This document shows, piece by piece, positions 450-31,328 of a stretch of DNA of 34,170 nt. A program made the position numbers and the translations under genes. The stretch lies in the NCBI GenBank assembly GCA_020631155.1, contig JAHDHV010000016.1, positions 1-34,170 of the forward strand. The letters are read 5' to 3'. Numbering within the stretch: the stretch's first letter is position 1; each line of letters starts with the position of its first letter. Origin of the DNA: Bacteroidota bacterium (GTDB lineage: Bacteria; Bacteroidota; Bacteroidia; Chitinophagales; UBA2359). The notes under the pieces were generated by a model, which saw only the letters and a list, made by a program, of their open reading frames with translations, searched no databases and had not been told where the DNA came from.

Positions 450-1898
450 ATGTATTATTCAATACGCGTATTTTTAGTAGTCTATTTATGGTTAAATCTT
501 CTTTGTATCAACAACATTTGTGCTCAACAATCAAATAAATGGGAAGCAGATTTCGATTATTTGATAGAAGAACTGCGCTTACAACATAAAGGATTATATC
601 AATACAAAACTAAGCAAGTAGTTGATAGTCAATTGGATAGCCTGCGTAAGTTGCTAAAAAAGCCAATGAATAAAATTGAGTTTTTCAAAATAGTCTATGC
701 GACAATTGCCTTAACAAATGAAGGGCATACCTATGCTTATTTACCTAAATGGGCAATGGTAAAAGTGGGTTTGTCGAAATCTTTTTTACCTTTAGCCGTA
801 AAATTTTGCAATAAAAAATTACTCATTCATCAGTATTATGGAAAAGAGCATCCAAAACTAAAACGAGGCCTGCAAATTCTATCCATTAATGGAAAAACAG
901 TAGAACAAATCACCAAAGATTTATTTTCCTATATGCCTTCTGATGGCTTCAATGAAACCTTTAAATACGAATCATTGGGTTTAGGAGTCAATTTATCCCT
1001 ATTATACCGTTTGATATATGGTAAGGCAAAACGATTTGAGCTAGTCGTACAAGAATTTGAAAAAGATGCACCCCTTTCATTAACTTTGAAAGGAGTGCGA
1101 TTTACTAAATTTAGAAAACAAAAAAATATTCAACTGAAAAGCAAGAAATTTAACTTTCAACAATTTCAATATACACTTCTTAATGATTCAATCGGATATT
1201 TAAGCGTGCCCAGTTTTGGCAATATCGACAGCGATAAAGGCAGTTTTTCACAATTTTATGCAGAGAGCTTTCGCAAAATAGATTCCGCAAAGGTTAAACA
1301 TTTAATCCTTGATTTACAAGCAAATCGAGGCGGAACGGAAGGAAATGAGAATTTGTTATATAGCTATTTGAGTAAGGATGTTTTTCAGAAATACGCTTTT
1401 GTGTCTATGCCGTTGAAGCCCTATAAACAAAGAAAAACCAGAAAATCATATATAGAAGATGGATGGCAAATAAAAAATGAACGAGCAGAACGAGGGGAAC
1501 ATACTTTGAGGAGTGATTACTACTCAGATTTAGGGTATCGTCCAGTAGATAAAAAAATGATTTACGATAATAAATTATATATTTTGACCAGTGGTACTAC
1601 TTTTTCTGGAGGAGCAGAATTTTCTAGTATGGTAAAAATGAATCAAAGAGGGGTTTTTATTGGTGAAGAAACGGGGGGCGTATATGAAGGCAACATCAGT
1701 GGACATGCTGCTACGATACAATTGCCCAATAGCAAAATAACTGTTGATATTCCCATTATGCACTTTCGCATCAATGTAGAGCCTGAAAAAAAGGGGAGGG
1801 GCGTAATGCCTGAACATACAGTGCCGCAGACATGGGAAGCGTATCTGCAAGGAAAAAATGCCAAATTAGATTATGTATTAGAGAGGTTGGTTCGTTGA
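450..1898 (+). CDS. S41-family (C-terminal processing/tail-specific-like) peptidase, secreted. The ORF track starts at a TTG at 387; ATG at 450 begins signal peptide MYYSIRVFLVVYLWLNLL
   Basis: Motifs LILDLQANRGG and ILTSGTTFSGGAEF typical of S41 peptidases; PDZ-like segment LQILSINGKTVEQI; N-terminal signal peptide. Confidence 0.75.
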   Translation: MYYSIRVFLVVYLWLNLLCINNICAQQSNKWEADFDYLIEELRLQHKGLYQYKTKQVVDSQLDSLRKLLKKPMNKIEFFKIVYATIALTNEGHTYAYLPKWAMVKVGLSKSFLPLAVKFCNKKLLIHQYYGKEHPKLKRGLQILSINGKTVEQITKDLFSYMPSDGFNETFKYESLGLGVNLSLLYRLIYGKAKRFELVVQEFEKDAPLSLTLKGVRFTKFRKQKNIQLKSKKFNFQQFQYTLLNDSIGYLSVPSFGNIDSDKGSFSQFYAESFRKIDSAKVKHLILDLQANRGGTEGNENLLYSYLSKDVFQKYAFVSMPLKPYKQRKTRKSYIEDGWQIKNERAERGEHTLRSDYYSDLGYRPVDKKMIYDNKLYILTSGTTFSGGAEFSSMVKMNQRGVFIGEETGGVYEGNISGHAATIQLPNSKITVDIPIMHFRINVEPEKKGRGVMPEHTVPQTWEAYLQGKNAKLDYVLERLVR

Positions 1899-1965
1899 TT
1901 CGTTGATTCGTGATTTGTGATTTGTGGATTCGTGATTAGTAGCTCAGTGATTCGTTTTTGAGGTT
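1899..1965. repeat. Imperfect tandem repeats of GATTCGT/GATTTGT units (TTCGTTGATTCGTTGATTCGTGATTTGTGATTTGTGGATTCGTGATTAG...)
   Basis: Direct reading. Confidence 0.6.
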
Positions 1966-3636: not shown

Positions 3637-4194
3637 ATGCTTTACAAATTAACACTCAAAAACACCGATAAAAAGCTCATTGTCTCAGACAAGGTCTATG
3701 AAGCTTTAGCACGAAATGAATATTTTCAAAGTATTCAATTACTCAAGAATTTGCGGATTCACTCCTATGGTTATGCCTTCTTCCAGAAAAATTTTGCCAA
3801 GCCCGAAGGCGGCTATAAAAACATAACGATTTATATACATCGTTATGTGGCAGAAAACTTTGTAGAAAAACCGCAAAGCAATAAACGACTCCTCGTTAGT
3901 TTTCGTAACGGCAACCGCCTAGACTGTAGAGAAGAAAACATCATCTGGGTCACCGCCTCGCAATTGGTTCGCAATACCGAAGGCATCATCAGCAACAGCA
4001 CCGGCTATCGCGGCGTTACAAAGGTAAATAATAAATACCGAGCAGCCATTTTTAGGGGCAAAACTCGCTACGATCTTGGTGATTTTACCAGCCCCGAAGA
4101 AGCTGCACGAGCCTATAACCGCAAGTCTATCGAATGGTTTGGCGTGACTAAAAGCTTAAACAAAATTCCGGGCGAGGACATCCAAGTTCGTTGA
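3637..4194 (+). CDS. HNH endonuclease (HNH_3-like) fused to an AP2/ERF-type DNA-binding domain; homing-endonuclease-like
   Basis: HNH_3-like segment IHRYVAENF...FRNGNRLDCREENIIWV; AP2 signature YRGVTKVNNKYRAAIFRGKTRYDLGDFTSPEEAARAYNRKSIEWFG; local GC clearly above window average. Confidence 0.75.
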   Translation: MLYKLTLKNTDKKLIVSDKVYEALARNEYFQSIQLLKNLRIHSYGYAFFQKNFAKPEGGYKNITIYIHRYVAENFVEKPQSNKRLLVSFRNGNRLDCREENIIWVTASQLVRNTEGIISNSTGYRGVTKVNNKYRAAIFRGKTRYDLGDFTSPEEAARAYNRKSIEWFGVTKSLNKIPGEDIQVR

Positions 4195-4392: not shown

Positions 4393-5625
4393 TTGCTGTC
4401 CATTAACTTTATTTCAGCTATTTTGAATTTACTTTTCATACAAATATTATTTTGCTTATCCATTTTAGCCGTATTTCACTCTTATGTGTTATACCCTTTT
4501 TTATTAAAATGGATGACACGCTCCCAAAAAAATAATCAACAAACCTTTAAAATAGCTGAAACAGCCAAGCTTCCCCATTTATTTATCTTAATGGCAGTGT
4601 ATAATGAAGAAAAAGTGATTGAAACAAAGCTTAAAAGTATTTATAACACTATATACCCAAAAGATAAATTAACCTTACTCATTGGTTCAGACAGCTCTAC
4701 AGATGCAACAAATAATATTGTAGAACGCTATGCTCAACAATATGATAGGCTTCATTTTCAAATTTTTGCAGCGCGAAGTGGCAAAATTCACATCCTAAAT
4801 CAATTATTTTCCCAATATCAACAAATGATTTTAGAAAAAGACAAAGCAGTGTTGATTTTAACAGATGCAAATGTCTTTTTTACAGAAGAGTTGTTGTATC
4901 AATTGGCTAAACATTATAAAAATCCTGAAATTGGAGTGGTAGGGGCAAATGTATTGAATATTGGTGTGCAAAATTCGGGCATTTCTTTTCAGGAAAAATG
5001 GTATATTCAGCGTGAAAATAAAATTAAATACTACGAAGGTTTATTAGGCGGGCATATGATGGGGGCTTTTGGGGCCTGTTATGCCTTGCGCGCTGATTTG
5101 TTTACCCCCGTTCCGAGCAACTTTATTGTAGATGATTTTTATTTAACTTTAAAAGCCATCGAAAAAAATACAAAGGCAATTAAAGAACTACAGGCCATTT
5201 GCTATGAAGATGTTTCGGACAATATGTTTGAAGAATTTAGGCGAAAAAAGCGTATTTCGGCAGGTAATTTTCAGAACCTTCGCACCTTCGCCCATCTACT
5301 TAATCCCCTAAAAGGTACAATTGCCTTCACCTTTCTATCGCATAAAGTATTGCGATGGCTAGGCCCTTTTTTCTTACTCACCGCCTTTGTTTGCTGTTGC
5401 TTATTAAGACAAGCAAACTATCTTTATGCTGTTTTGTTCTTTGTACAAATAGCATTACTATTCGTGCCATTGGCTGATTATTTACTGAAAAAATGGAATA
5501 TACACATTAAACTATTTCGTTTTATTAGTTATTTCGGGCTAATGAATATCGCACTATTAATTGGTTTTTTTAATTATCTAAAAGGAATAAAAAGCAATGT
5601 TTGGAAACCCACAAAACGGAATTGA
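4393..5625 (+). CDS. Family 2 glycosyltransferase, membrane-anchored (N-terminal TM, C-terminal TM bundle)
   Basis: GT2 hallmarks [29 protein letters not shown]; hydrophobic N- and C-terminal segments. Confidence 0.7.
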
Positions 5626-6856
5626 ACGTTCATCTAAGGCTGCTCAAAGTCAGCTAAACAGCATTGAGGAAGCTATTGCCGACATCAAGGCAGGCAAGTT
5701 GATCATTGTCGTAGATGATGAAGACCGAGAAAACGAAGGCGATTTTATTACTGCCGCTCGCAATGTAACACCCGAAATCATCAACTTTATGGCAACACAT
5801 GGTCGCGGTCTCATCTGTGCGCCGCTCATTGAGTCGGAATGTGATCGCTTAGGTTTAGAGTTGATGGTTAGCAGCAATACCGCCCTTCACGAAACGCAAT
5901 TTACTGTATCCATTGACCTCTTAGGACACGGCTGTACAACAGGTATTTCGGCTGCCGATAGATCGAAAACGGTTCAAGCTATGATTGACCCGAATATTCA
6001 TGCAGAGGATTTTGGCAAGCCCGGACATATTTTTCCGTTAAGAGCCAAAAGCGGCGGCGTATTGCGGCGTGCAGGACATACCGAAGCAACTATTGATTTG
6101 GCTCAATTAGCAGGTTTTGAACCCGCAGGTGTGTTGGTAGAAATTATGAATGAAGATGGAACAATGGCGCGCTTGCCTGATTTATTGAAAATTGCGAAAA
6201 AATTTGATTTAAAAATCATTTCTATTCAAGACCTTATCACTTATCGCTTATCTAAAGAAAGATTGATTAAACGGGAAGTATCCATTAATTTACCTACCAA
6301 ATACGGTGATTTTGACTTGATTGCCTACACTGAAATTCACACAGGCGAGGTACATTTGGCATTGGTCAAGGGGACATGGGGCTTAGATGAACCTGTCTTA
6401 TTGCGCGTTCACTCCTCTTGCGTTACAGGCGACATATTGGGGTCGCTCCGTTGCGATTGCGGCGATCAGTTGTCTACAGCGATGCAGCAAGTACAACAGG
6501 AAGGGCAAGGCGTTGTTTTGTATATGAATCAAGAAGGGCGCGGTATCGGTTTGCTCAACAAATTGAAAGCCTACAAACTACAGGAAGAAGGGCGCGACAC
6601 AGTGGAAGCTAACCTAGAACTCGGTTTCCAAAAAGACCAGCGCGACTACGGCATCGGCGCACAGATTCTACGTGATCTCAATATTCGCAAAATCCGCTTA
6701 ATGACCAATAACCCTAAAAAGCGAATTGGTTTGATTGGCTATGGCTTGGAAATCGTGGAGAATCTGCCGATTGAAATTCAGCCAAATGATCACAATGAAA
6801 AGTATTTGCAAACCAAGCGCGATAAGCTAGGCCATGAGATTTTGAAAGACGCTTGA
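5597..6856 (+). CDS. ribBA: Bifunctional 3,4-dihydroxy-2-butanone-4-phosphate synthase / GTP cyclohydrolase II
   Basis: RibB motif [21 protein letters not shown]; RibA zinc site [21 protein letters not shown] and [12 protein letters not shown]; overlaps upstream gene by 29 nt. Confidence 0.9.
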
Positions 6857-6876
6857 TTTAATTATGAATTTATTTA

Positions 6877-6940
6877 ATTACGAATTACGAATTACGAATT
6901 ACGAATTACGAATTAGAAATTACGAATTAGAAATTACGAA
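6877..6940. repeat. Tandem 9-bp repeat (ATTACGAAT / ATTAGAAAT) x7
   Basis: Direct reading; same unit recurs at 27430-27462. Confidence 0.85.
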
Positions 6941-6995
6941 TTGTTGAATTATTATTTAGTCAACTGACCATTAATAATTCAACAATTCATTTTTT
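6941..6995 (+). terminator. Hairpin TTGTTGAATTATTA-loop17-TAATAATTCAACAA followed by TTCATTTTTT; likely ribBA terminator
   Basis: 14-bp perfect inverted repeat plus T-run. Confidence 0.55.
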
Positions 6996-7034
6996 ATGAG
7001 AAAAAAATATTTTTTATTTTATTTGTTATTAACT

Positions 7035-8165
7035 ATGGAAAAGGCATTTAAAAGTATTCGCATCCAAAATTTTAAGTCTATTAAAGACATAGAACTCAAT
7101 TGCAGCCGCATTAATTTATTTATTGGCAAGCCAAATGTGGGCAAATCCAATATTTTAGAGGCACTGTCTTTATTTGCCGCGCCTTTTAGTCAAGATGAAA
7201 AATATCTATCCGAATTTATTCGCTATCGAAATTTTAGCAATCTTTTTTATGATGATAATATTCGAGAACCCATTTTAATCACTTCTAATCTTGGGAATGG
7301 GCATTTGTTTTATGATAGAGAAAGATGGGCTTTCGGTCTGGTAATGAGTGATAAAAGTGTAAATTCAAATAAGTTGAATGTTTTAAATGTTGATTTAGTA
7401 AGTGACTATCTTGATAGCTTAGTAATTAAAAATACTTTAATCAGTGCTTTTCCTTCAAAAAATAAAGATGCTCATGGTGAGCATATAAGATTTAGTTTTT
7501 TCCAAAGTATTGATAGAGCTGGCTATAGAGGTAGGAGTGATAGAAACTATAAGTTTAAGTTGGAATACACATCAACTCTAAAAAAATACACCTTTAAAGA
7601 AGGAATAAATATCAGTTCACAAGGGGATTACAGCCTTTATCCTCCATTTGGAGATAATTTATTTTTAGTAGTACAAACAAATCCTGAGTTGAGGAGGGAA
7701 ATAGCTGATTTTTTTGAAGAATATAATATGGATTTTATATTAGATATAAAAAATAATGAATTTGAGGTGCAAAAAAAGGTAGATGGCATTGTTTATAAAA
7801 GACCTTACCAACTAATTGCAGATACTTTAAAGCGCATTATTTTTCATTATGCAGCCATTTATTCCAATAAAGATTCGATTTTATTATTTGAAGAACCAGA
7901 AAATCACTCTTTTCCGCCTTATGTGCGAGAGTTAGCCCATAAAATTGTGGATGATGAAAGCAATCAATTTTTTATTACCACACATAGTCCCTATTTATTT
8001 AATACCATTATCGAAAATGCATCAAGAGAAGATGTTTCTGTTTTTATCACTAACTTTGAGCAACATCAAACAAAGGTCAAGCAATTAACAGAGGATGAAA
8101 TTGCCGAACTATCTGATCATGGGGCAGATATTTTTTTCAATTTAAATTGGTTTGAAAATGAGTAA
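7035..8165 (+). CDS. ABC-type (AAA_21/AAA_15-like) ATPase, defense-associated type; module 1 ATPase. The ORF track start 6996 is less likely than MEKAFKSIRIQNFKSI at 7035
   Basis: Walker A IGKPNVGKSNILEAL; Walker B/D-loop ILLFEEPENHSFP; H-loop FITTHSPYLF; N-terminus typical of OLD/AbiL/PARIS-class ATPases. Confidence 0.75.
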   Translation: MEKAFKSIRIQNFKSIKDIELNCSRINLFIGKPNVGKSNILEALSLFAAPFSQDEKYLSEFIRYRNFSNLFYDDNIREPILITSNLGNGHLFYDRERWAFGLVMSDKSVNSNKLNVLNVDLVSDYLDSLVIKNTLISAFPSKNKDAHGEHIRFSFFQSIDRAGYRGRSDRNYKFKLEYTSTLKKYTFKEGINISSQGDYSLYPPFGDNLFLVVQTNPELRREIADFFEEYNMDFILDIKNNEFEVQKKVDGIVYKRPYQLIADTLKRIIFHYAAIYSNKDSILLFEEPENHSFPPYVRELAHKIVDDESNQFFITTHSPYLFNTIIENASREDVSVFITNFEQHQTKVKQLTEDEIAELSDHGADIFFNLNWFENE

Positions 8166-8649
8166 AGAGCGACACCCAAATATTCTTCCTGAATGTTATG
8201 CGGATACTTTGCTAGTGCATTTACTCGGTTTCAAATATCCCAATCATTGCCCTAGTATTGGTGCGGTAGCAAATACGATGAAAAAACAAAGCCTCGCTAT
8301 TGGAGTGATAGATCGAGATAAAAGGCAGCCCAAATATTTTAGTGAGTTTGATTTATTGGAAGAAAAACACGATTTGCAACTCAAAAAGCACCCTAACAAG
8401 CGACATTATTTGATTGTAGTTTCTCCTGCTTTTGAAAAATGGATATTTAAGGCAGCAGATTCTGTTGATGTCAAACCTGAAAAATATGGTTTTAAAACTT
8501 GGAAACGCTTTAAAAATATTTCTAAAAGTAGAACTGTAGATAGAAATCAGGATTTTAAGCAATTCATCAATGCCATCAAGCAAAAAAAATCACCACCTAC
8601 AGAGCAGATGATTGAGTGGATTCAGGATATTTTAGATAAAAACCTTTGA
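8158..8649 (+). CDS. Small (163 aa) partner protein of module 1 ATPase; possible minimal Toprim/RloB-like effector (DxD in LAIGVIDRDKRQ). Start overlaps the ATPase stop (ATGAGTAA); an alternative ATG lies at 8152
   Basis: Translationally coupled overlap with upstream ATPase; basic protein; DxD motif; no confident family assignment. Confidence 0.45.
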   Translation: MSKERHPNILPECYADTLLVHLLGFKYPNHCPSIGAVANTMKKQSLAIGVIDRDKRQPKYFSEFDLLEEKHDLQLKKHPNKRHYLIVVSPAFEKWIFKAADSVDVKPEKYGFKTWKRFKNISKSRTVDRNQDFKQFINAIKQKKSPPTEQMIEWIQDILDKNL

Positions 8650-8799
8650 TGGATTAGCTGTTTGTTTTTAGCGTGAAAAAGCATTTTTTTTACACCAAAA
8701 ACAAGCTTTTTTTCTATTGAAAACTTAGTAAGTACTGCACAATAATTAAACGGGATTCTTTGTTTGATTAAAACAATGAAAGCCAATACTTTAGAACAA

Positions 8800-8813
8800 A
8801 ATTGTGCACAATT
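8800..8813. promoter_or_regulatory. Perfect 14-bp palindrome AATTGTGCACAATT ~80 bp upstream of module 2 ATPase; related half-site CTGCACAATAATT ~60 bp further upstream
   Basis: Self-complementary sequence in the intergenic region between modules. Confidence 0.3.
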
Positions 8814-8892
8814 AATTAGTGCTTGGCACTTATTTCCTATTTTTGTTATTGATTAAGGTAGGGAGCAATTATTTTGTATAAAAAAAAGAAAA

Positions 8893-10185
8893 ATGAAAAG
8901 TTTTCGCATTAAAAATATAAAAGCTTTTAAGGATTCGGGGAAGATTGAAATAAAGCCGATTACTTTATTTTATGGCAAAAATAATACGGGAAAAAGCAGT
9001 TTAATTCGCTTTCCATTGGTATTAAAACAAACGATGCAGCGACCCTATGCCCCATTGATGTTTACAGGCATCCCCGAACGCCCTGATAATGTAGATTATG
9101 GCACTTATAAAGAAGTTGTGTTTAATAATGATGAAAGCAAACATATTGAGTTTGAATTGGAAGTGGATTATAGAAAAAATACCTTAAATTATTTAGTAAA
9201 TATTCAAAGAAAAAATGGACAACTTGAAGTGTTCTCTTATAAGGATAGGTATGAATCGTTGGAAGTAGAAGACGGTCAGTATATCTTCAGTGATTCACAA
9301 CTAACAAAGGAAGCAGTAGAAGTAGATTTTGATGGTTTTTTTCCAAAAGCGAGTCATTTTATTAATAAGCCAAAAACAGAAGATGGAAGGTTACTAGCTC
9401 GTCGTCATTCTTATCTAACTGACTTCTTCAATCAAATTTCTTACCTATCCACTTATCGTCCTAAACCAAAACGGCAATATCGTTTTAGTGATGTGGATTT
9501 CTCTAAATCGGGGGCAGAAGGCATTTATTGGGCAGAAATTTTGGGTTTTTATCATGAACAAAAAAATACCGCTTTTTTTGATGTACTTAATGATTGGTTA
9601 GTAAAAAATACAGGTTTAAGACTGTTGATTAAGGATTTGGGAAGTGTTTTTGAGATTATGGTAGAAAATATAAACACCAAACGAACAGATAATGTGGTAG
9701 ATATAGGCTCAGGATGGCAATTTCTACTACCTATTTTAATACAAACATTTGTTCATATTGAAAAAAAATCAGCTTCACCTTTTATTAAAATCATAGAAGA
9801 ACCAGAAATGCATCTGCATAGTTCGGTGCAAACAGCGGTTGCCGATTTATTTATTTGGGCAACACAAACGAATCCGCAAAATCGCTTTATGATAGAAACC
9901 CATAGTGAAAGTATTCTCTTGCGAACAGTTCGCAGGGTTATGGAATGGCTACAAACAAAAGGGGAAAAAGGCATTAATCCTGATGATGTAATTGTTTATT
10001 TTATTGAAAAAAGTGCCAATGAAGAAGAAGGTTCGAAGGTTACCCCTTTTAAAATTAATGAGAAAGGAATTTTGAAAAGTACTTTAGATGGTAGCATTAT
10101 GGATGAATCATTTTTTGACACTGATTTTGAGGAAGTAGTTGCCATTAACAAATTGCATGTATCACAGGCCGCGAAAAGTCAATAA
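8893..10185 (+). CDS. ABC-type ATPase (AAA_15/AAA_21-like, possibly with DUF3696-like C-terminus); module 2 ATPase, AriA/OLD-ATPase-like
   Basis: Walker A LFYGKNNTGKSSLIRF; signature-like IGSGWQFLLPIL; Walker B IKIIEEPEMHLH; H-loop MIETHSESILL; N-terminus MKSFRIKNIKAFKD. Confidence 0.75.
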   Translation: MKSFRIKNIKAFKDSGKIEIKPITLFYGKNNTGKSSLIRFPLVLKQTMQRPYAPLMFTGIPERPDNVDYGTYKEVVFNNDESKHIEFELEVDYRKNTLNYLVNIQRKNGQLEVFSYKDRYESLEVEDGQYIFSDSQLTKEAVEVDFDGFFPKASHFINKPKTEDGRLLARRHSYLTDFFNQISYLSTYRPKPKRQYRFSDVDFSKSGAEGIYWAEILGFYHEQKNTAFFDVLNDWLVKNTGLRLLIKDLGSVFEIMVENINTKRTDNVVDIGSGWQFLLPILIQTFVHIEKKSASPFIKIIEEPEMHLHSSVQTAVADLFIWATQTNPQNRFMIETHSESILLRTVRRVMEWLQTKGEKGINPDDVIVYFIEKSANEEEGSKVTPFKINEKGILKSTLDGSIMDESFFDTDFEEVVAINKLHVSQAAKSQ

Positions 10186-10188
10186 ACT

Positions 10189-11349
10189 ATGAATATTTGT
10201 ATTTCAGAAAATTTATGGAGGGCGGCTTTAACGGAAGAAGATACTTGCACTGTCATTGAAGAATTGCTACTTACTGTAAGAGCAAAAAAGCATAAGTTGT
10301 ATTTTGACTGGGACGAAGCTGTGCCTATTACAGAGTTGTTACAAAGTGATTTATTTGGTTTTTATAATCGAAGAATACTTAAAAAAAGCTATGAAAGATC
10401 ACGAACAGCTTTTCATTCCCTCGAAAAATATGTCTTAATCGTTCCTAAATCCTATATTGAGCAATGCAAAACGCAAGAGAATGTTAGGGCTTATTTTCAA
10501 GATCAAAAAGCAGTTAAAAGCAGCCCTGAACAAACGATTGAATTTATTGCTATTGAAGCTTGTCAACATTATTTATGCAGCCCTTTGATGATTATGGTGG
10601 AGGATGAAGAAAGTGATAAACTTTTTCTCAGTAGCATTTATCCTATTGTTATTCAATCAGTTAGCAATTTAGAAAATGCCAAATCCTTTGAAGAATTGAT
10701 TAAAGAACAGGAAATAGAGGTACTACATGGTGGAGGTACAGGTGTAACACAACGATTGAAGAATATCAAGTATCCTAGACGTGTTTTTTGCCTAATTGAT
10801 AGCGATAAATTATTTGAAAATGATGAAGGAACGGACGATACTAGAAAAAAACAAAGAGAAATCAACAATATTTGTAATCGAAAAGGCTTTGTTTTACATA
10901 TTCTCCACAACCGAATGATTGAAAATTACTTACCTGATAAAGCAATAAAAGAGTGGAGTAAAAAACAATCTCCTGTTATTCGACAAAACATAGCTAATCA
11001 CCCCTATTTTCAGCTAACAAGTACACAAAAAGCATTTTTTGATTGTAAAAAAGGTTTACTGCTCAAAGATTTTCAATATCCCGAAATTCAACAATCGTAT
11101 CTTGTACAATATCAACAAATACAACAAAATTCAGAACAATTTGATGCACTAAATAAGTTGATTCAAAACCAAGCTACAAAAGAAGATGGTAGCATTTTAA
11201 AAGTGAAAATTATTCAGGGCTTGAATCGGGAAATTTACAAAGCATTTAACGAAATCAAAAAAACTGAAAACCAAATCACCTCTGACAGTTTTGGAACGCA
11301 CCTCCAAGAATTAAAAGACATTTGCATAGCCATTCAAAGGCAGTTATAA
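10189..11349 (+). CDS. Module 2 partner (386 aa): putative Toprim-like (DUF4435/OLD-nuclease-like) effector
   Basis: Candidate Toprim elements MIMVEDEESDKLF (Glu), HGGGTG, FCLIDSDKLF (DxD); starts 4 nt after the ATPase stop; assignment by motif only. Confidence 0.45.
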   Translation: MNICISENLWRAALTEEDTCTVIEELLLTVRAKKHKLYFDWDEAVPITELLQSDLFGFYNRRILKKSYERSRTAFHSLEKYVLIVPKSYIEQCKTQENVRAYFQDQKAVKSSPEQTIEFIAIEACQHYLCSPLMIMVEDEESDKLFLSSIYPIVIQSVSNLENAKSFEELIKEQEIEVLHGGGTGVTQRLKNIKYPRRVFCLIDSDKLFENDEGTDDTRKKQREINNICNRKGFVLHILHNRMIENYLPDKAIKEWSKKQSPVIRQNIANHPYFQLTSTQKAFFDCKKGLLLKDFQYPEIQQSYLVQYQQIQQNSEQFDALNKLIQNQATKEDGSILKVKIIQGLNREIYKAFNEIKKTENQITSDSFGTHLQELKDICIAIQRQL

Positions 11350-11599: not shown

Positions 11600-12241
11600 A
11601 TGTACAAAATATTCATCAACGACATACCCGTTTATCTAACCGATGACAAAAAGCAAAAACCGACTACCAAAGCAAAATCGGTATGGCGGATTAAATACAG
11701 CAAAAAAACGGATTTACTCGCCACCATTCAGCTATTGGAGCAGCAACCGCCGATAGATGAGGTGTATATTATTACTGATAAAGTAAGCAAACTGTACAAA
11801 GTGTTTGCAGCGCATTATAAGGGCATTGTAGCGGCAGGAGGCGTTGTGTTTAATGAAAATGGGGAGTTGCTATTAATTTATCGCCGCAAAAAATGGGACT
11901 TGCCAAAAGGAAAGGTAGAGGAAAACGAAACCATTGATATGGCGGCGGTGCGCGAGGTAGAGGAGGAGACGGGCTTGAAAAATGTGGAATTGGGAGAAGA
12001 AATTTACATTCCTAGCAATCAATTTCATACGACTTATCACACCTATTTCAACAGCAAAGGTAAACGCATCCTAAAAACAACTTATTGGTATTATATGTCC
12101 TGTAATGGCGAGGCGCAACACTTAAAACCGCAATTAGAGGAAGATATTGAGGAAGTTCGTTGGGTGAATCCTCAACATATCGCTTCTTATTTAAATAATA
12201 CGTTTTTGTCTATTGTGGATGTCGTAAAGGCGTGTCTGTAG
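11600..12241 (+). CDS. NUDIX hydrolase
   Basis: Nudix box GKVEENETIDMAAVREVEEETGL (GX5EX7REUXEEXGU). Confidence 0.85.
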   Translation: MYKIFINDIPVYLTDDKKQKPTTKAKSVWRIKYSKKTDLLATIQLLEQQPPIDEVYIITDKVSKLYKVFAAHYKGIVAAGGVVFNENGELLLIYRRKKWDLPKGKVEENETIDMAAVREVEEETGLKNVELGEEIYIPSNQFHTTYHTYFNSKGKRILKTTYWYYMSCNGEAQHLKPQLEEDIEEVRWVNPQHIASYLNNTFLSIVDVVKACL

Positions 12242-16183: not shown

Positions 16184-16263
16184 CTAAAAATCTAAAAATC
16201 TAAAAATCTAAAAATCTAAAAATCTAAAAATCTAAAAATCCAAAAGTCCAAAAGTCCAAAAAT
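16184..16263. repeat. Tandem 8-bp repeats (CTAAAAAT x6, CCAAAAGT x2, CCAAAAAT) followed by a leader-like TCGAACTTCTAATTGCTAACCTCT
   Basis: Direct reading; same unit family as the 2111-2414 array. Confidence 0.85.
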
Positions 16264-16789
16264 CGAACTTCTAATTGCTAACCTCTATTCATTATGACGA
16301 TTGCAAACTATAAAAAAGATGGCTAAGTAAACCAATGTAATCAATTTTTGGTGTTTTTGATGTAATACATCCGCCAATTAGTTAAGAAATACACAAAGAA
16401 CTTAGCAGAAATAAGTAAATAGTGACTTTACTATGATAAATGTAGACTAAAATATAAGCGAAATAGTGTTAGCTTTTAGAAAGCTTGTAGAAGCATTTTA
16501 TGAATTGTTTTTACTGGAAAGATGTGAAGTTTTTTATATTTTAAGTTGATGATATTTTTTTTATTTAAAAGTTTGATAATCAAGTTAAAACCCAATTAAA
16601 AAGCTAATATCTGATTGCTGTTTACTGAAAAGCTAAAAGAAATATTGTTTTTTAGAAAAATTATAAGCCAATTCAGCATCTAAATTTGAATTTTACTTAT
16701 TTTTGTGACCATTTTGAGACATTTGTATTCCATTAAACCATTATATAGGCGCAGTCCTCAAGCCCCTACCAATCATTAACACAAGCTTT

Positions 16790-21742: not shown

Positions 21743-24061
21743 ATGATATTATTAAGTATTTTAGGGGCTCTAGGCGTTGCTGGCCTAGTCATTGTTGCCA
21801 TCATTTTAATGGGTATTATTGCCTTTATTGCCTCTTTTTATAGAAAAATTCCACAAGGTTCTGCCCTAGTTCGCACAGGTGCAGGCGGTACAAAAATTGG
21901 TTTTGACAGTGGAATGGTCGTTTTGCCTGTCCTTCACTTAGCCGAAATAATGGATATTGCGGTTAAAAAAGTGGAAATTGAACGTATGGGCAAAGACGGT
22001 TTGATTTGTAAAGACAATTTACGTGCAGACATCAAAGTAGTGTTTTTTGTTCGGGTAAATAAATCGGTGGAAGGTGTAGAGCGAGTAGCGCAAACCATTG
22101 GTTGTGCGCGTGCTTCAAGCATCGATACCTTGGTTACCTTATTTGAAGCGAAGTTTTCAGAAGCTCTAAAAACGGTTGGTAAACGCTTCGATTTTGTAGA
22201 CCTCTATGATTCGCGTGAAGCTTTTAAGCAAGAAATTATCAACGCAATTGGTACAGACCTAAATGGTTATGTATTAGATGATTGCGCTATTGATTATTTA
22301 GAGCAAACGCCTATCGAACATCTTAAAGAAAGCAATATTTTAGATGTAGAAGGTATCAAAAAAATCACTGAATTAACTGCTAGAGAAAAAATTAAAGCAA
22401 ATTTAATTCGTAGAGAGGAAGAAAAAACCATCAAAAAACAGGATGTTGAAGCCAAAGAAGCCATTTTGGAACTAGAGCGTCAATTGGCGGAAAAGGAAGA
22501 AATTCAAAGGCGAGAAATTGCCATTATTAAGGCAAGGGAAAGTGCAGAAACTCTGCGTGTGCAAGAGGAAGAACGCCTGAAAGCCGAGCGAGCAAGAATT
22601 ACAACAGAAGAAGAACTGCAAGTAGCCGAAGAAAATAAATTGCGACAAATTATTGTTGCTCAAAAAAATAAGGAGCGAACAGAAGCCATTGAAACAGAAA
22701 AAGTACATAAGGATAAGCAGTTGGAAGTGACAGAGCGAGAGAAAATTGTGGCTTTGGCGCAAATAGAAAAGGAAAAAGTGGTAGAGGAGGAGCGCAAAAA
22801 CATTCAGGATGTGATTAGAGAGCGCGTGATGGTAGAAAAAGCAGTGGTAGAGGAGGAAGAAAAAATCAAAGATACCAAAGCATTTGCCGAAGCAGAAAGA
22901 AATAAATCGGTTGCGATTACGGTTGCTGAACAGCAAGCAGAAGAAGCATTGGTGAAGCAATTGAAGGAAGCAGAAGCACAAAAATTGTCGGCAGAATGGA
23001 AAGCACAACAGCGATTAATTGATGCCGAAGCAGAAAAAAATGCATCAGCAAAAGAAGCAGAAGCCAAGAAAATTATGGCGGAAGCAATTGCAGCAGAGGA
23101 AGCAGCACTTGGGGTATCGGAAGCGCAAGTAATGGAAGCAAAAGCAATAGCCGTTGAGCGTCAAGGAGTTGTAGAAGCAAATATCATTACCAAAAAAGCA
23201 GAAGCGGAGGCAAAAGCAATTGCATTGAAAGCGGAGGCAGCCAAAAAGCGCGGTTTGGTAGAGGCAAATATAATGCAAGAAAAAGGTTTGGCAGAGGCAA
23301 GGGTTATCGAAGAAAAAGCCTTTGCAGAAGCCAAAGGTTTAGAGGAGCGCGGTGTGGCAGAAGCGAAAGTTTTGGAGCAGGCAGCATTAGCAGAGGCCAA
23401 AGGTATTGAAGAAAAAGGCAGCGCGGAAGCGAAAATTTTGGAGCAGGCAGCATTGGCAGAAGCCAAAGGCATTGCAGAAAAAGGCAGCGCAGAAGCAAAA
23501 ATTTTAGAAGAAGCAGCACTTGCAGAAGCCAAAGGTATTGAGCAGAAGGCAGAGGCGATGAAAAAATTGGATGGTGTAGGTAAAGAGCATGAGGAGTTCA
23601 AACTCAGATTGGAGAAGGAAAAAGCCATCGAATTGGCAGCCATCAAGATTCAGGAAGCCATTGCCGAGTCACAAGCTAAAGCCATTGCCGAAGCACTCAA
23701 ATCTGCAAATATCGACATTGTGGGTGGTGAAACGATGTTCTTTGAGAATATTGTAGAAGCTATTACAAGAGGTAAAACGATTGACAGAACGATTGATAAT
23801 AGCCAAAATTTGACGGCTTTGAAACATGGACTTTTAGGCAATACTGCGAATGGCGGCGGCAATGTGATGGATAAAATCAAAGGCTTTGTCAAGCAGTTCA
23901 ACTTAGATACAGAGGACATTAAAAACTTGTCCCTCACTGCTTTAATGGTGAAAATGATTGCAATGAGCAGCAATAGCAATGACAAAAGTATCTTAGGCGA
24001 ATTGCTTAATGTAGCCAAAGGAGTAGGCATCGCCAATAAAAAAGTAGATAGCTTGTTTTAA
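21743..24061 (+). CDS. Flotillin-family (SPFH/band 7) protein, unusually long (772 aa) with an extended Ala/Glu-rich coiled-coil repeat region
   Basis: N-terminal TM + SPFH domain (IPQGSALVRTGAGGTKIGFDSGMVVLPVLHLAEIMDI...); repeated AEAKGIEEKGSAEAKILEQAALAEAKGI units. Confidence 0.85.
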   Translation: MILLSILGALGVAGLVIVAIILMGIIAFIASFYRKIPQGSALVRTGAGGTKIGFDSGMVVLPVLHLAEIMDIAVKKVEIERMGKDGLICKDNLRADIKVVFFVRVNKSVEGVERVAQTIGCARASSIDTLVTLFEAKFSEALKTVGKRFDFVDLYDSREAFKQEIINAIGTDLNGYVLDDCAIDYLEQTPIEHLKESNILDVEGIKKITELTAREKIKANLIRREEEKTIKKQDVEAKEAILELERQLAEKEEIQRREIAIIKARESAETLRVQEEERLKAERARITTEEELQVAEENKLRQIIVAQKNKERTEAIETEKVHKDKQLEVTEREKIVALAQIEKEKVVEEERKNIQDVIRERVMVEKAVVEEEEKIKDTKAFAEAERNKSVAITVAEQQAEEALVKQLKEAEAQKLSAEWKAQQRLIDAEAEKNASAKEAEAKKIMAEAIAAEEAALGVSEAQVMEAKAIAVERQGVVEANIITKKAEAEAKAIALKAEAAKKRGLVEANIMQEKGLAEARVIEEKAFAEAKGLEERGVAEAKVLEQAALAEAKGIEEKGSAEAKILEQAALAEAKGIAEKGSAEAKILEEAALAEAKGIEQKAEAMKKLDGVGKEHEEFKLRLEKEKAIELAAIKIQEAIAESQAKAIAEALKSANIDIVGGETMFFENIVEAITRGKTIDRTIDNSQNLTALKHGLLGNTANGGGNVMDKIKGFVKQFNLDTEDIKNLSLTALMVKMIAMSSNSNDKSILGELLNVAKGVGIANKKVDSLF

Positions 24062-24220: not shown

Positions 24221-24268
24221 ACAACTCACAACTCACAACTCACAACTCACAACTCACAACTCACAACC
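24221..24268. repeat. Heptanucleotide tandem repeat (ACAACTC) x ~6.5 immediately upstream of the folC ATG
   Basis: Direct reading. Confidence 0.85.
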
Positions 24269-27429: not shown

Positions 27430-27462
27430 TTTAATTACGAATTAGAAATTACGAATTATGAA
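27430..27462. repeat. 9-bp ATTACGAAT / ATTAGAAAT repeats (same family as 6877-6940)
   Basis: Direct reading. Confidence 0.75.
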
Positions 27463-27515
27463 TTGTTTTTTTGGATGGGGGAGATATAAAGGTTTTCAAT
27501 CTAATTGATAAGTTT

Positions 27516-28745: not shown

Positions 28746-31328
28746 TTATTCGTTGAGCTTTTTTACCAATGAAAACAATCTAGAGGTGTCTACTATTACT
28801 TCATTTAATTGTTCTTTACTATATTTAGCTACTCTTGAATGAAAAGTTTCATTTCGTTCATCTATTGTGTACTCTTTTAAATTCTTTACCACTTGCTTTA
28901 TAATTAACTTAATTTCGTTAGTTTTGGAATTACCAAAATAGTTTAAAATAAAGTTGTGTTCTAACCACAGCCAATTTAAAACTTTTTTCATTTCACCAAG
29001 GCTAGAATAGTATATGAGATGTAAATCATTTTTTAAAGCTCTATTTCTATTATATTCCCATTTAGATACTAACTTTGAGTTTCTTTTATTTACAAAATCT
29101 TCAAATGTTATGTCATTTTCAAAAAGTTCAATTACAAAAATTCTTAATTGCTCTTCCGAGTTTATTAAGTGAGTCGTTATTTTTTGTATCATATTTTCTT
29201 GTTCTTCTTCAGCAATCATTTTCTTTGCTTTTGCATAAACACTTTTGCAGTTTTCATCATTAAGGGCAATCCTCTTATGATCTTCAAATGTTATAAGTAT
29301 TCTTTCCCAATCACGCTCACTTGCATGGATTTGTAATAAAACTCTTAATGCATTTTTTTCATACTCAATATCTGTGTCTTTATCTGAGTAGGTTAATATT
29401 TTTTTTGCTATTTTCTTTGCTTTTTCATAATCTCTATCTTTACTTGAGGTATAGTAGTTCATGTCCTTTACAAAATAATTGATGGAATTTTTTATCTTAT
29501 TTTCATAGAGTCTTATTTTACTATTAATCTTATCATTAGAAAAAATTTTCAGATATTTAGTATGAACTTTCTTTTTTTCTTTTAAATATTTTATTTTATT
29601 TTCAATACTGTCATCTTCCTTAACTAGTTTATCTACTAATTGTAAATAAATATTTTTTTCCTTATGCACAAGTAAAGTCAATTCAATACTTTTCCATTCC
29701 CGTAAAAATTCTATTTTATCAGCAATTCGTTCATTATTATATTGACTAATTATTTTTTTTGCTTCCTCCCTTAGTATTTCAAATCTTTTTAAATATTTAT
29801 ATATGTTAATGTACTGTTTTGCAATTGAGGTGTCATATGATGTTTCTTTTAAAGCGTTTATTGCTATGTTAATTGCAACTTGTCTTCTTTTGGGACGCTG
29901 TTCCATTTTTATCCAATCAAACCATATGTTTTTATTAGTTGGATTGAGCTCTGTAGCTCTACGAAAATTTTCAGATGCTTTAGAATACAAATAAAGAACA
30001 GTTTGTACTTTTGCTAACTCATGATATAATCTATAATCTTCAATTCTTTCAATTGCATTTATTAGTGAATTTTCAGCTCCCTTATAATCTAAGTCATTTA
30101 AATAGATTTTTAATCTTTCAAGAAATAAGTCAACTTTATCTTTAGAAATCTCCTTATTTAGCATCGCATTTTTAAGTCCAAGTACTTTGTTCTCTATTTC
30201 GTCGTAGTCTATATAGTGCTGTTTAGCAAAATTTATAGCCATCTTACTTATTATTATTTCTCCATTAGCACTTTCAGCAATCAACTGATTTGCATAGAGT
30301 TCATCAATAATTTGCTCCAGTTTGCCAGAATCAAAGTTACTATAGTTCATTAGAGTTTCTATTGTGATAGGTTCATCTTTTTTACTCCGATTTCTATGTA
30401 ATGAAGTTATTATTTTAAATATCAACTGTGTATCTGTGTTCAATGATTCATACATATCCTTGAAACTAAATAGGATTATTTCAGACATTCTTTGTTTTTT
30501 CTCTTTAGGCGTTTTAGCATCTTCAATACTAGGATAACCCTCAAGTTCTTGAAAAATTTGCCCTCTAGACTTACCTCTGATTAGTTGTCCAATTATAAAT
30601 TCAATAGCTAGTGGAATTTTTCCAACTCGTTCTATTAACTTTAAGTTCATCTTTTCGGAAGAATTGATGATTTCAAGAATTCTCTTTTCTCTATTATTTT
30701 CTGCTAACCATATTAACATATCATAGGCTTTTGTCAGAGAAAGACCTTGTATTTCAATAGGAAAGTCTGCTATCTTTTTTCTTTTTCGTGATGTAGTTAA
30801 CACTTTTAAATATCTATTATTTCGGCTATATTTATTGAATTTTCTGAGAAAAGTGAAAAAATCGGGATTATTTATCGTCTCCAAGTTATCTAATACAAAA
30901 AAGATTTTTTCATCTTTTACAATTTCTTCAAAAAAACTCTTTCGTTCTAGAAAAGGATGTTTAAGGAATTCGGGGAATCCAGCTAATCTAATAGTTTCAT
31001 CAATTAATATTTCAATTGGCTTATCTTTGAATTCATTTTTTATATTTATTATTTGATTATCTGTTGCAAAGGCATCAAAAACAGTATTCTTCGCTGTAAC
31101 CCAAACAAGGTAACTAAAATCACCACTTTTAAGCAAATATTCTTTACAGAAATAATAGGCTAGTGCTGTTTTGCCAATTCCACCAATTCCATCTATAGAG
31201 GCTATATATGTGCCACCTTCAATTAATTCATCTTTGATTTTTGAAATTGTGTTTTCACGACCAAAAAATTTCATATATGGTTGATTTGGTAAATTGTGAG
31301 TTGTTTTTGTATATGTTAGCTCTTTCAT
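28746..31328 (-). CDS. STAND-class NTPase (NB-ARC-like P-loop at residues ~45-55) followed by ~600 aa of TPR/helical repeats; no recognisable N- or C-terminal effector domain
   Basis: P-loop IDGIGGIGKTALAYYF; Walker B FFVLDNLE; repetitive helical remainder with frequent Y/W/K-rich ~34-aa periodicity. Confidence 0.7.
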   Translation of the reverse strand: MKELTYTKTTHNLPNQPYMKFFGRENTISKIKDELIEGGTYIASIDGIGGIGKTALAYYFCKEYLLKSGDFSYLVWVTAKNTVFDAFATDNQIINIKNEFKDKPIEILIDETIRLAGFPEFLKHPFLERKSFFEEIVKDEKIFFVLDNLETINNPDFFTFLRKFNKYSRNNRYLKVLTTSRKRKKIADFPIEIQGLSLTKAYDMLIWLAENNREKRILEIINSSEKMNLKLIERVGKIPLAIEFIIGQLIRGKSRGQIFQELEGYPSIEDAKTPKEKKQRMSEIILFSFKDMYESLNTDTQLIFKIITSLHRNRSKKDEPITIETLMNYSNFDSGKLEQIIDELYANQLIAESANGEIIISKMAINFAKQHYIDYDEIENKVLGLKNAMLNKEISKDKVDLFLERLKIYLNDLDYKGAENSLINAIERIEDYRLYHELAKVQTVLYLYSKASENFRRATELNPTNKNIWFDWIKMEQRPKRRQVAINIAINALKETSYDTSIAKQYINIYKYLKRFEILREEAKKIISQYNNERIADKIEFLREWKSIELTLLVHKEKNIYLQLVDKLVKEDDSIENKIKYLKEKKKVHTKYLKIFSNDKINSKIRLYENKIKNSINYFVKDMNYYTSSKDRDYEKAKKIAKKILTYSDKDTDIEYEKNALRVLLQIHASERDWERILITFEDHKRIALNDENCKSVYAKAKKMIAEEEQENMIQKITTHLINSEEQLRIFVIELFENDITFEDFVNKRNSKLVSKWEYNRNRALKNDLHLIYYSSLGEMKKVLNWLWLEHNFILNYFGNSKTNEIKLIIKQVVKNLKEYTIDERNETFHSRVAKYSKEQLNEVIVDTSRLFSLVKKLNE

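Follow-up and report, generated by a model that had tools for sequence, protein, structure and literature searches.

Introduction

Bacterial immune systems repeatedly pair an ABC ATPase with a Toprim nuclease, as in OLD, Gabija, PARIS, AbiL, MADS and some Menshen systems. Here, we consider a four-gene locus of this general kind, carried on a 34,170-nucleotide stretch of DNA (hereafter ‘the window’; positions 1 to 34,170 of contig JAHDHV010000016.1, assembly GCA_020631155.1) from a member of the Bacteroidota (Chitinophagales, UBA2359). The locus comprises two ATPase/partner pairs, which we refer to as module 1 (genes A1 and B1) and module 2 (genes A2 and B2; Table 1). The reading that we favour, with moderate confidence, is that these are two independent two-gene modules, in each of which an OLD-ABC-type ATPase would be translationally coupled to a metal-dependent Toprim-type nuclease, and that both would act through abortive infection of the PARIS/AbiL kind.

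Several described systems serve as points of comparison. In PARIS, the ABC ATPase AriA is paired with AriB, a Toprim protein of the DUF4435 type (PMC11464382); in AbiL, from Lactococcus (PMC13064643), AbiLi is paired with AbiLii, which like RloB of the RloAB pair is an OLD-type Toprim partner. OLD and the GajA protein of Gabija carry ATPase and Toprim in one polypeptide, whereas they are separate genes here, and, unlike in Gabija, no GajB or UvrD-type helicase gene is adjacent. The MAD3/MAD4 proteins of MADS, other AAA_21 plus DUF4276 pairs, and HEC-01 all share with the present locus the combination of an ATPase with a small Toprim (DUF4276-type) partner. Menshen consists of NsnA (DUF262), NsnB (an ABC ATPase with DUF3696) and NsnC (adaptor plus effector; PMC12065111), with some NsnC effectors being DUF4276 or RloB Toprims. 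Finally, PDC-M55 is a PADLOC ‘guilt-by-embedding’ candidate (Payne et al., bioRxiv 10.1101/2024.01.29.577857).

Two ATPases of one superfamily

A preliminary description of this DNA had assigned A1 and A2 to the ABC/AAA_21 class of ATPases, and this is borne out by Pfam matches and by intact motifs in both. Each protein matches AAA_15 and AAA_21 above Pfam thresholds (A1: AAA_15 at 7.5e-18, AAA_21 at 6.7e-15; A2: AAA_15 at 1.9e-19), and A2 additionally shows a weak C-terminal trace of DUF3696 (0.015) that is clear in its homologues. In A1 we find a Walker A motif GKPNVGKS (G31, K37, S38), a Walker B motif LLFEEPE (E286-E287-P288-E289) and an H-loop TTHS (H317), all invariant across the A1 family alignment; the middle insert (approximately residues 90-200) is highly variable across the same family. 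The equivalents in A2 are GKNNTGKS (K34), IIEEPE (E302-E303-P304-E305) and ETHS (H337). There is also a weak similarity to RecF/SMC_N in the P-loop region.

The two ATPases had further been described as paralogous-looking, and here our results differ. When compared by BLASTP, A1 and A2 align at the P-loop (45% over 38 amino acids, E 2e-5) and along a Walker B/H-loop stretch, with nothing more; judged on their sequences, they are members of the same superfamily and not recent paralogs. With likeness confined to these elements, we rejected the possibility that one module arose from the other by recent tandem duplication. Both proteins also match AriA profile hidden Markov models (HMMs; A1 at 8.3e-18, A2 at 1.3e-19), but these matches are partial and are not the best for either. 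Sequence and profile searches of the PDB returned no relatives for A1, B1, A2 or B2.

Module 1: an AbiLi-like ATPase and a putative minimal Toprim

The top PADLOC match for A1 is AbiLi (PDLC02336, 1.3e-22), spanning residues 5-362 of the protein and positions 2-335 of the 340-position profile, albeit at a modest score; it is followed by ATPase-Toprim, GajA, AriA, Old and several PDC/HEC ATPases. The likeness to AbiL, and to RloAB, would extend to the partner, in that B1 also appears to be an OLD-type Toprim, but B1 itself has no AbiLii or RloB match at threshold.

None of the Pfam, PADLOC and NCBIfam models is matched by B1 above its threshold, and in PADLOC there is no match even at E<=1. Among 5.8 billion protein clusters we recovered 27 relatives of about 160 amino acids, all of them lacking precomputed Pfam domains; B1 itself is present in the database at 163 amino acids, the same length as the gene annotated here. 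The family alignment is nonetheless informative. With residue 1 taken as the TTG at 8152 (numbers are lower by 2 if counted from the ATG), E14 and D18 (within PEC.ADT), D54 and D56 (within GxxDxDK), P92 and K125 are invariant, and E95 (within SPAFE.W) is conserved in at least 90% of the family; we regard E14, D18, D54, D56 and E95 as putative metal-binding residues. B1 shows each of the features by which an OLD-type Toprim is recognised: a four-stranded core in which beta-1 is followed by a glutamate and beta-3 by a DxD, together with further acidic residues for metal B.

Sub-threshold similarities point the same way. DUF4276 is matched by B1 at 0.087 and by 3 of the 28 family members (best 0.0011), and RloB by 2 of the 28 (best 0.0018). 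A Foldseek search of B1 against the PDB gave nothing significant, nor did hhalign comparison of the B1 family with P2 Old or with a bona fide DUF4276 protein. Taken together, there is good but not overwhelming support for B1 being a minimal OLD-type Toprim, distantly like DUF4276 and RloB.

How far does module 1 resemble MADS? A1 has a weak match to MAD3 (6e-8) and B1 one to MAD4 (0.036), but the NCBIfam scores are far below their cut-offs (32 versus 420 bits for MAD3, 14 versus 160 for MAD4), B1 is shorter than the MAD4/DUF4276 profiles of around 200 amino acids, and no methyltransferase or other MADS gene is found among the window proteins scanned. PARIS differs as well, in its partner: B1 is about half the size of AriB, and at E<=1 both B1 and B2 fail to match DUF4435 and the AriB models of PADLOC, the sole link being a fused homologue of module 2 that is discussed below.

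The A1-B1 cassette recurs in six further neighbourhoods, where a B1 homologue always lies directly downstream of, and overlapping, the ATPase gene. The partner ATPases (AAA_15/AAA_21, 340-382 amino acids) are 38-52% identical to A1. The loci examined appear to belong to Bacteroidota, an assignment based solely on the neighbouring genes, and neither the viral contigs nor the plasmid collection contained a member of the B1 family. We conclude that module 1 represents a rare, uncatalogued family with a small Toprim-like partner.

Module 2: a two-gene form of the PDC-M55 candidate

According to the preliminary description, the two modules could not be mapped cleanly, on sequence alone, onto any single described system; for module 2 this does not hold. 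A2 matches PDC-M55A over its full length (2.7e-65, residues 3-426 of 430), ahead of NsnB (7.6e-45) and HEC-03B (2.3e-31), and B2 matches PDC-M55B (3.7e-21), albeit partially (residues 107-313); the order, A then B, and the tight coupling of the two genes are likewise those of PDC-M55.

Word-indexed searches had returned six relatives of B2 only, mostly from Bacillus cereus, and exhaustive HMMER searches returned 1068 representatives at E<=1e-3. Thirty of these (E<=1e-30) align with B2 nearly full length, and the rest cover positions ~130-354 of the profile only. PDC-M55B is matched by all 123 of the relatives sampled; Pfam matched none of them, and B2 had no sequence match in the PDB. The N-terminal ~125 amino acids of B2 are specific to its subclade.

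Canonical PDC-M55, as seen in one viral contig (L095) and 65 metagenome loci, has the order A-B-C, where the third gene, PDC-M55C, encodes a GmrSD_N/DUF262 protein of 520-550 amino acids directly after B (PDC-M55C 5.4e-69; Pfam 6.3e-36). C is present in nearly every PDC-M55-type locus with enough downstream DNA. The exceptions are the present window and the loci of the closest relatives of B2 (L007, L096 and L097), with a fourth (L098) too short to judge. Together with B2, these relatives make up a divergent subclade in which the B protein has its own N-terminal domain, and in most of the relatives the ATPase is longer (~470 amino acids). A local HMM of the C (DUF262-type) family had no match among the open reading frames (ORFs) of the window, and Pfam scans of the flanking genes revealed no DUF262 domain.

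The two-gene form is also found on eight megaplasmids of the Bacillus cereus group, annotated as ‘DUF3696 domain-containing protein’ plus ‘hypothetical protein’. We inspected the neighbourhood in one of the eight, a 350-kb Bacillus cereus plasmid (L161; NZ_CP040343.1, 233310-247948), where the neighbours of the pair are AbiGi/AbiGii, a nuclease of the Rpn family, a recombinase and a DUF86/nucleotidyltransferase pair, in what looks like a plasmid defence island. Because the closest relatives of B2, and this Bacillus plasmid, also lack C, we place module 2 as a divergent member of an A-B-only PDC-M55 subclade without the DUF262 component. No B2 match was found in the phage collection, the viral contigs yielded a single PDC-M55 locus (A-B-C), and a literature search for ‘PDC-M55’ returned no paper.

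The absence of C could instead mean that module 2 is the decayed, nonfunctional remnant of a three-gene PDC-M55 or Menshen-like system that has lost its DUF262 sensor, given that a DUF262 gene directly follows B in nearly all such loci with downstream sequence, and that the PADLOC match of B2 is weak and partial. We consider this quite improbable: B2 keeps all of the family-invariant residues and has some 30 full-length representatives at E<=1e-30, and the two-gene form, which makes a coherent subclade whose A proteins are longer and whose B proteins have an N-terminal domain of their own, occurs as intact ORFs in Bacillus plasmids and metagenomes. Menshen itself resembles module 2 in that A2 matches NsnB and has relatives with a DUF3696 tail, and in that canonical PDC-M55 also includes a DUF262 protein. 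The differences are that there is no DUF262 gene in the window, that B2 matches no NsnC model at E<=1, and that the gene order of PDC-M55 is ATPase-effector-DUF262 rather than NsnA-NsnB-NsnC.

We note in passing that one locus (L141, 742-8218) contains two copies of the A-B-C triplet, with identical scores and at a distance of 3841 bp, probably reflecting a circular element or a concatemer produced in assembly.

A Toprim fold for B2?

Glutamate and DxD motifs of Toprim type had been reported for both partners, and these are indeed invariant in both partner families. In B2 the positions that are invariant or nearly so across the 123 relatives are E138, D143, F146, G182-G183, R198, D204-S205-D206, R242, E245-N246-Y247 and P249, with K287 invariant in a 35-sequence alignment, such that the core set of Toprim-like motifs reads E138, D143, GGG181-183, D204-S-D206, R242..E245-N-Y-L-P and K287. 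The canonical Toprim order places a glutamate after beta-1, a glycine after beta-2 and the DxD after beta-3 (PMC6755086). An AlphaFold2 model of B2, of low confidence (pLDDT 39.6), has short strands just before E138, GGG181-183, D204 and R242, and thus the order of motifs and strands, as far as this model can be relied upon, is that of a canonical Toprim.

Two single-ORF fusions of a PDC-M55A-like ATPase with a PDC-M55B-like domain (L155, 2241-3860; L160, 169-1884) provide a possible bridge. The first of these matches an independently built HMM of the B family (48 bits over the DSD...REIENYLP segment) and also, at a sub-threshold 4e-4, the Pfam domain DUF4435, that of AriB, over residues 368-479, which cover the DxD region. 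From the motifs, this bridging match and the strands of the low-confidence model, we infer a Toprim fold for B2.

An alternative is that B2 is not a Toprim at all, and is instead a PIN-like or other acidic-residue nuclease/adaptor, as in HEC-03 (ABC ATPase plus PIN) or Menshen NsnC (an inactive-PIN N-domain plus effector). The next-best PADLOC matches of A2 are to NsnB and HEC-03, whose partners are of PIN type (PMC12065111; bioRxiv 10.1101/2024.01.29.577857), B2 shows no significant similarity to B1 or to any Toprim family (hhalign of the B2 superfamily against the B1 family and against P2 Old gave nothing significant), and its model lacks confidence. We nevertheless think this unlikely, since the order E...D / GGG / DxD / E...K, with predicted strands before each motif, fits a Toprim (PMC6755086), and since the fused homologue ties the B family to DUF4435 across the DxD region. 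For module 2, then, the proposal of an ATPase plus a Toprim nuclease is plausible but unproven; the motifs and strand order speak for it, as does the DUF4435 match of the fused homologue, although this lies below threshold.

One system or two?

B1 overlaps A1 by 8 nt (its ATG is at 8158) and B2 begins 3 nt after the A2 stop, so that each pair is tightly coupled. That the two pairs are independent of one another, rather than parts of a single four-gene system, follows from their separate occurrence elsewhere: no A2 or B2 relative lies near A1-B1 in the six other neighbourhoods, and about 65 PDC-M55-type loci contain no B1-family gene. A suggestion had been made that the pairs might act together, but with each pair found alone in every other locus examined this is unlikely. 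The stronger form of that idea, in which the four genes make up one composite system of two mutually dependent ATPase-nuclease pairs, can appeal to their adjacency and shared direction, and to a metagenome locus (L134, 2263-8635) where a canonical PDC-M55 A-B-C is directly followed by an AAA_21 ATPase and a bona fide DUF4276 protein (1.1e-8). In that neighbour, however, the ATPase is of another family and its partner is a genuine DUF4276 protein, and the arrangement, a second example of two adjacent ABC-ATPase/Toprim cassettes, looks like the ordinary clustering of defence cassettes. Taken with the separate occurrence of the two pairs, their lack of relationship in sequence and the 243-bp spacer between them, this makes a composite system very improbable indeed.

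Consensus scans of the spacer detected a sigma-70-like match (8717-8746) and a weak hairpin (8818-8830), both at or below the expectation from shuffled sequence; such features would be consistent with separate transcription units for the two modules. Separately, a 29-nt segment at or upstream of both ATPase starts (7010-7038 and 8830-8858) is 72% alike, with a TTTGTTATTRAYTAWGG core, which may be chance or a common promoter-like element.

Genomic setting

The ORF map, together with the Pfam matches of the flanking genes, confirms that four ORFs of the same direction separate ribBA from a NUDIX gene (Table 1), the latter following 250 bp of non-coding DNA after the B2 stop. For A1, a start at 7035 rather than 6996 fits the six homologues in the family alignment. 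The genes neighbouring the block are mostly housekeeping, and the contig appears to be chromosomal and of Bacteroidota type.

Table 1. Features of the four-gene locus and its immediate flanks (window coordinates).
Feature	Position	Strand	Supporting match or method
ribBA	5597-6856		DHBP_synthase 3.3e-85; GTP_cyclohydro2 6.8e-74
(AATTACG) x9.6 microsatellite, just downstream of the ribBA stop	6876-6942		Tandem Repeats Finder (TRF)
A1, ABC ATPase (AAA_15/AAA_21; AbiLi-like), 376 amino acids	7035-8165	+	
B1, stand-alone mini-Toprim partner (putative), 163 amino acids	8158-8649	+	
Spacer between module 1 and module 2, 243 bp	8650-8892	+	
A2, ABC ATPase of PDC-M55A/NsnB-like type, 430 amino acids	8893-10185	+	
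B2, divergent PDC-M55B-family protein, 386 amino acids	10189-11349	+	
NUDIX gene	11600-12241		1.9e-22

Repeat-rich DNA had been described as bounding the four genes. The array on the left is present, but it does not mark an island border, with arrays of 7-8 nt units lying in or near many intergenic regions of the window (1886-1955, 6876-6942, 16184-16264, 24221-24267 and 27433-27464); the AATTACG unit recurs at the last of these, and the other units are CTAAAAAT (x10), ACAACTC (x6.7) and TTCGTGA (x6). Such short-period microsatellites look like a window-wide feature, possibly repeats of the contingency type, and with like arrays elsewhere in the window we rejected them as attachment sites. At 2107-2406, a 16-nt unit (AAAGGCTAAATATCCA) is likewise repeated in tandem between genes (x18.8, with a super-period of 48 nt).

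The GC content of the four genes (0.30-0.34) is lower than that of ribBA (0.41-0.43), but falls within the range of the contig (0.26-0.45). The sole tRNA of the window, tRNA-Met (227-301), is ~6.7 kb upstream of A1. In a synteny sample of 80 ribBA loci, drawn from GTDB species genomes of Bacteroidota, ribBA had neither the NUDIX gene nor any of the four genes near it, and the upstream GT2-ribBA pair was common to about 8 of the 80; the best ribBA matches, from Chitinophaga and from metagenome-assembled genomes of Flavobacteriales, were at most 77% identical. The four genes are therefore not part of a core synteny with ribBA, and conservation in core-genome synteny, which the preliminary description had named, together with the lack of a nuclease fold in the partners, as telling against a defence island, was thus not what we found.

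Elsewhere in the window, an 860-amino-acid protein with an NB-ARC (STAND NTPase) domain (28746-31328, minus strand; 6.6e-10) is encoded in the part of lowest GC (0.26-0.29), and could be an Avs-like antiviral STAND gene. A 772-amino-acid ORF without a Pfam match (21743-24061, plus strand) lies in strongly purine-skewed DNA (GC skew 0.3, AT skew 0.46) and contains internal 33/66-nt repeats at 23252-23552. Upstream of the GT2-ribBA genes, a 185-amino-acid ORF (3637-4194, plus strand) with an HNH_3 domain (2.7e-6) is possibly a protein of the homing-endonuclease type.

Proposed mechanism and function

The acidic constellation described above matches that of AriB (E26, D30, D88, E90, E122; PMC11464382) and of Bp OLD (E400, E404, D455, D457, E508, K562; PMC6755086). 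By analogy with PARIS (PMC11464382), AbiL (PMC13064643) and the predicted NsnB-NsnC complex (PMC12065111), we propose that an oligomer of the ATPase would hold the partner nuclease in an inactive state, with the variable insert of the ATPase serving as an infection sensor for a phage-derived trigger. Encounter with this trigger, along with binding or hydrolysis of ATP, might then release or activate the nuclease, and the freed Toprim could cut tRNA or DNA such that growth of the infected cell stops, i.e. abortive infection. Nuclease activity, sequestration and release of the partner, and the defence function itself, are thus what we infer for both modules.

A number of observations weigh against this proposal, and we gather them here. 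For B2 there is neither a confident structure nor a match in Pfam or the PDB, and profile comparison links it to neither B1 nor P2 Old. The PDC systems are 145 candidates that were predicted by ‘guilt-by-embedding’, and a related ATPase plus Toprim candidate, HEC-01, gave no protection (both bioRxiv 10.1101/2024.01.29.577857). No flanking direct repeats or integrase were found to mark the four genes as a mobile element, nor was an empty junction downstream of ribBA found among the 80 loci. Lastly, the genes around the six other A1-B1 cassettes vary and are mostly housekeeping, rather than forming recognisable defence islands, and in two related metagenome contigs (L002 and L006) the cassette has a shared location, with a polysaccharide-synthesis gene on one side and an EamA gene on the other.

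Points such as the last could be taken to indicate that the pairs are not anti-phage at all, and that they act instead as selfish, toxin-antitoxin-like addiction modules or as ATPase-nuclease pairs of DNA repair or housekeeping; the weak RecF/SMC_N similarity at the P-loop, and the absence of the B1 family from the viral contigs, plasmids and phages searched, would sit comfortably with this. It strikes us as a rather unlikely account: the best family matches are all to defence ATPases (AbiLi, GajA, AriA, Old, PDC, HEC), the distribution is patchy, over six unrelated neighbourhoods and with none of the four genes by ribBA in 80 genomes, and relatives of B2 are neighbours of AbiG on plasmids and occur, in one case, in a viral contig. 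Moreover, PARIS itself acts as a toxin-antitoxin pair, so that the two accounts overlap. The defence role that had been suggested for this locus is thus supported by the resemblance of the families and by gene neighbourhoods elsewhere, such as the AbiGi/AbiGii genes next to relatives of B2 on a Bacillus plasmid, and by these only.

Returning to our favoured reading of two independent ATPase-nuclease modules, the earlier observation was largely right, and its interpretation right in kind but imprecise, both pairs being variants of a known design. A bolder proposition, which we put forward tentatively and consider doubtful as a whole, is that module 1 represents a new ABC-ATPase-controlled defence family with the smallest stand-alone OLD-type Toprim known (~160 amino acids), that module 2 is a PDC-M55/Menshen-like system working without a DUF262 sensor, with sensing performed by the ATPase insert or by the N-terminal domain of B2, and that both are functional anti-phage systems missing from current catalogues.

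Neither module changes the concept of how such systems work. Their value would lie, firstly, in extending detection models, as module 1 would escape PADLOC and module 2 would not be reported by it as complete. Beyond this, B1, as a minimal Toprim effector of around 160 amino acids, would provide a compact model of nuclease caging by an ATPase, and module 2, as a naturally reduced form of a three-gene DUF262 candidate, would offer a direct test of whether DUF262 is the sensor or is dispensable.

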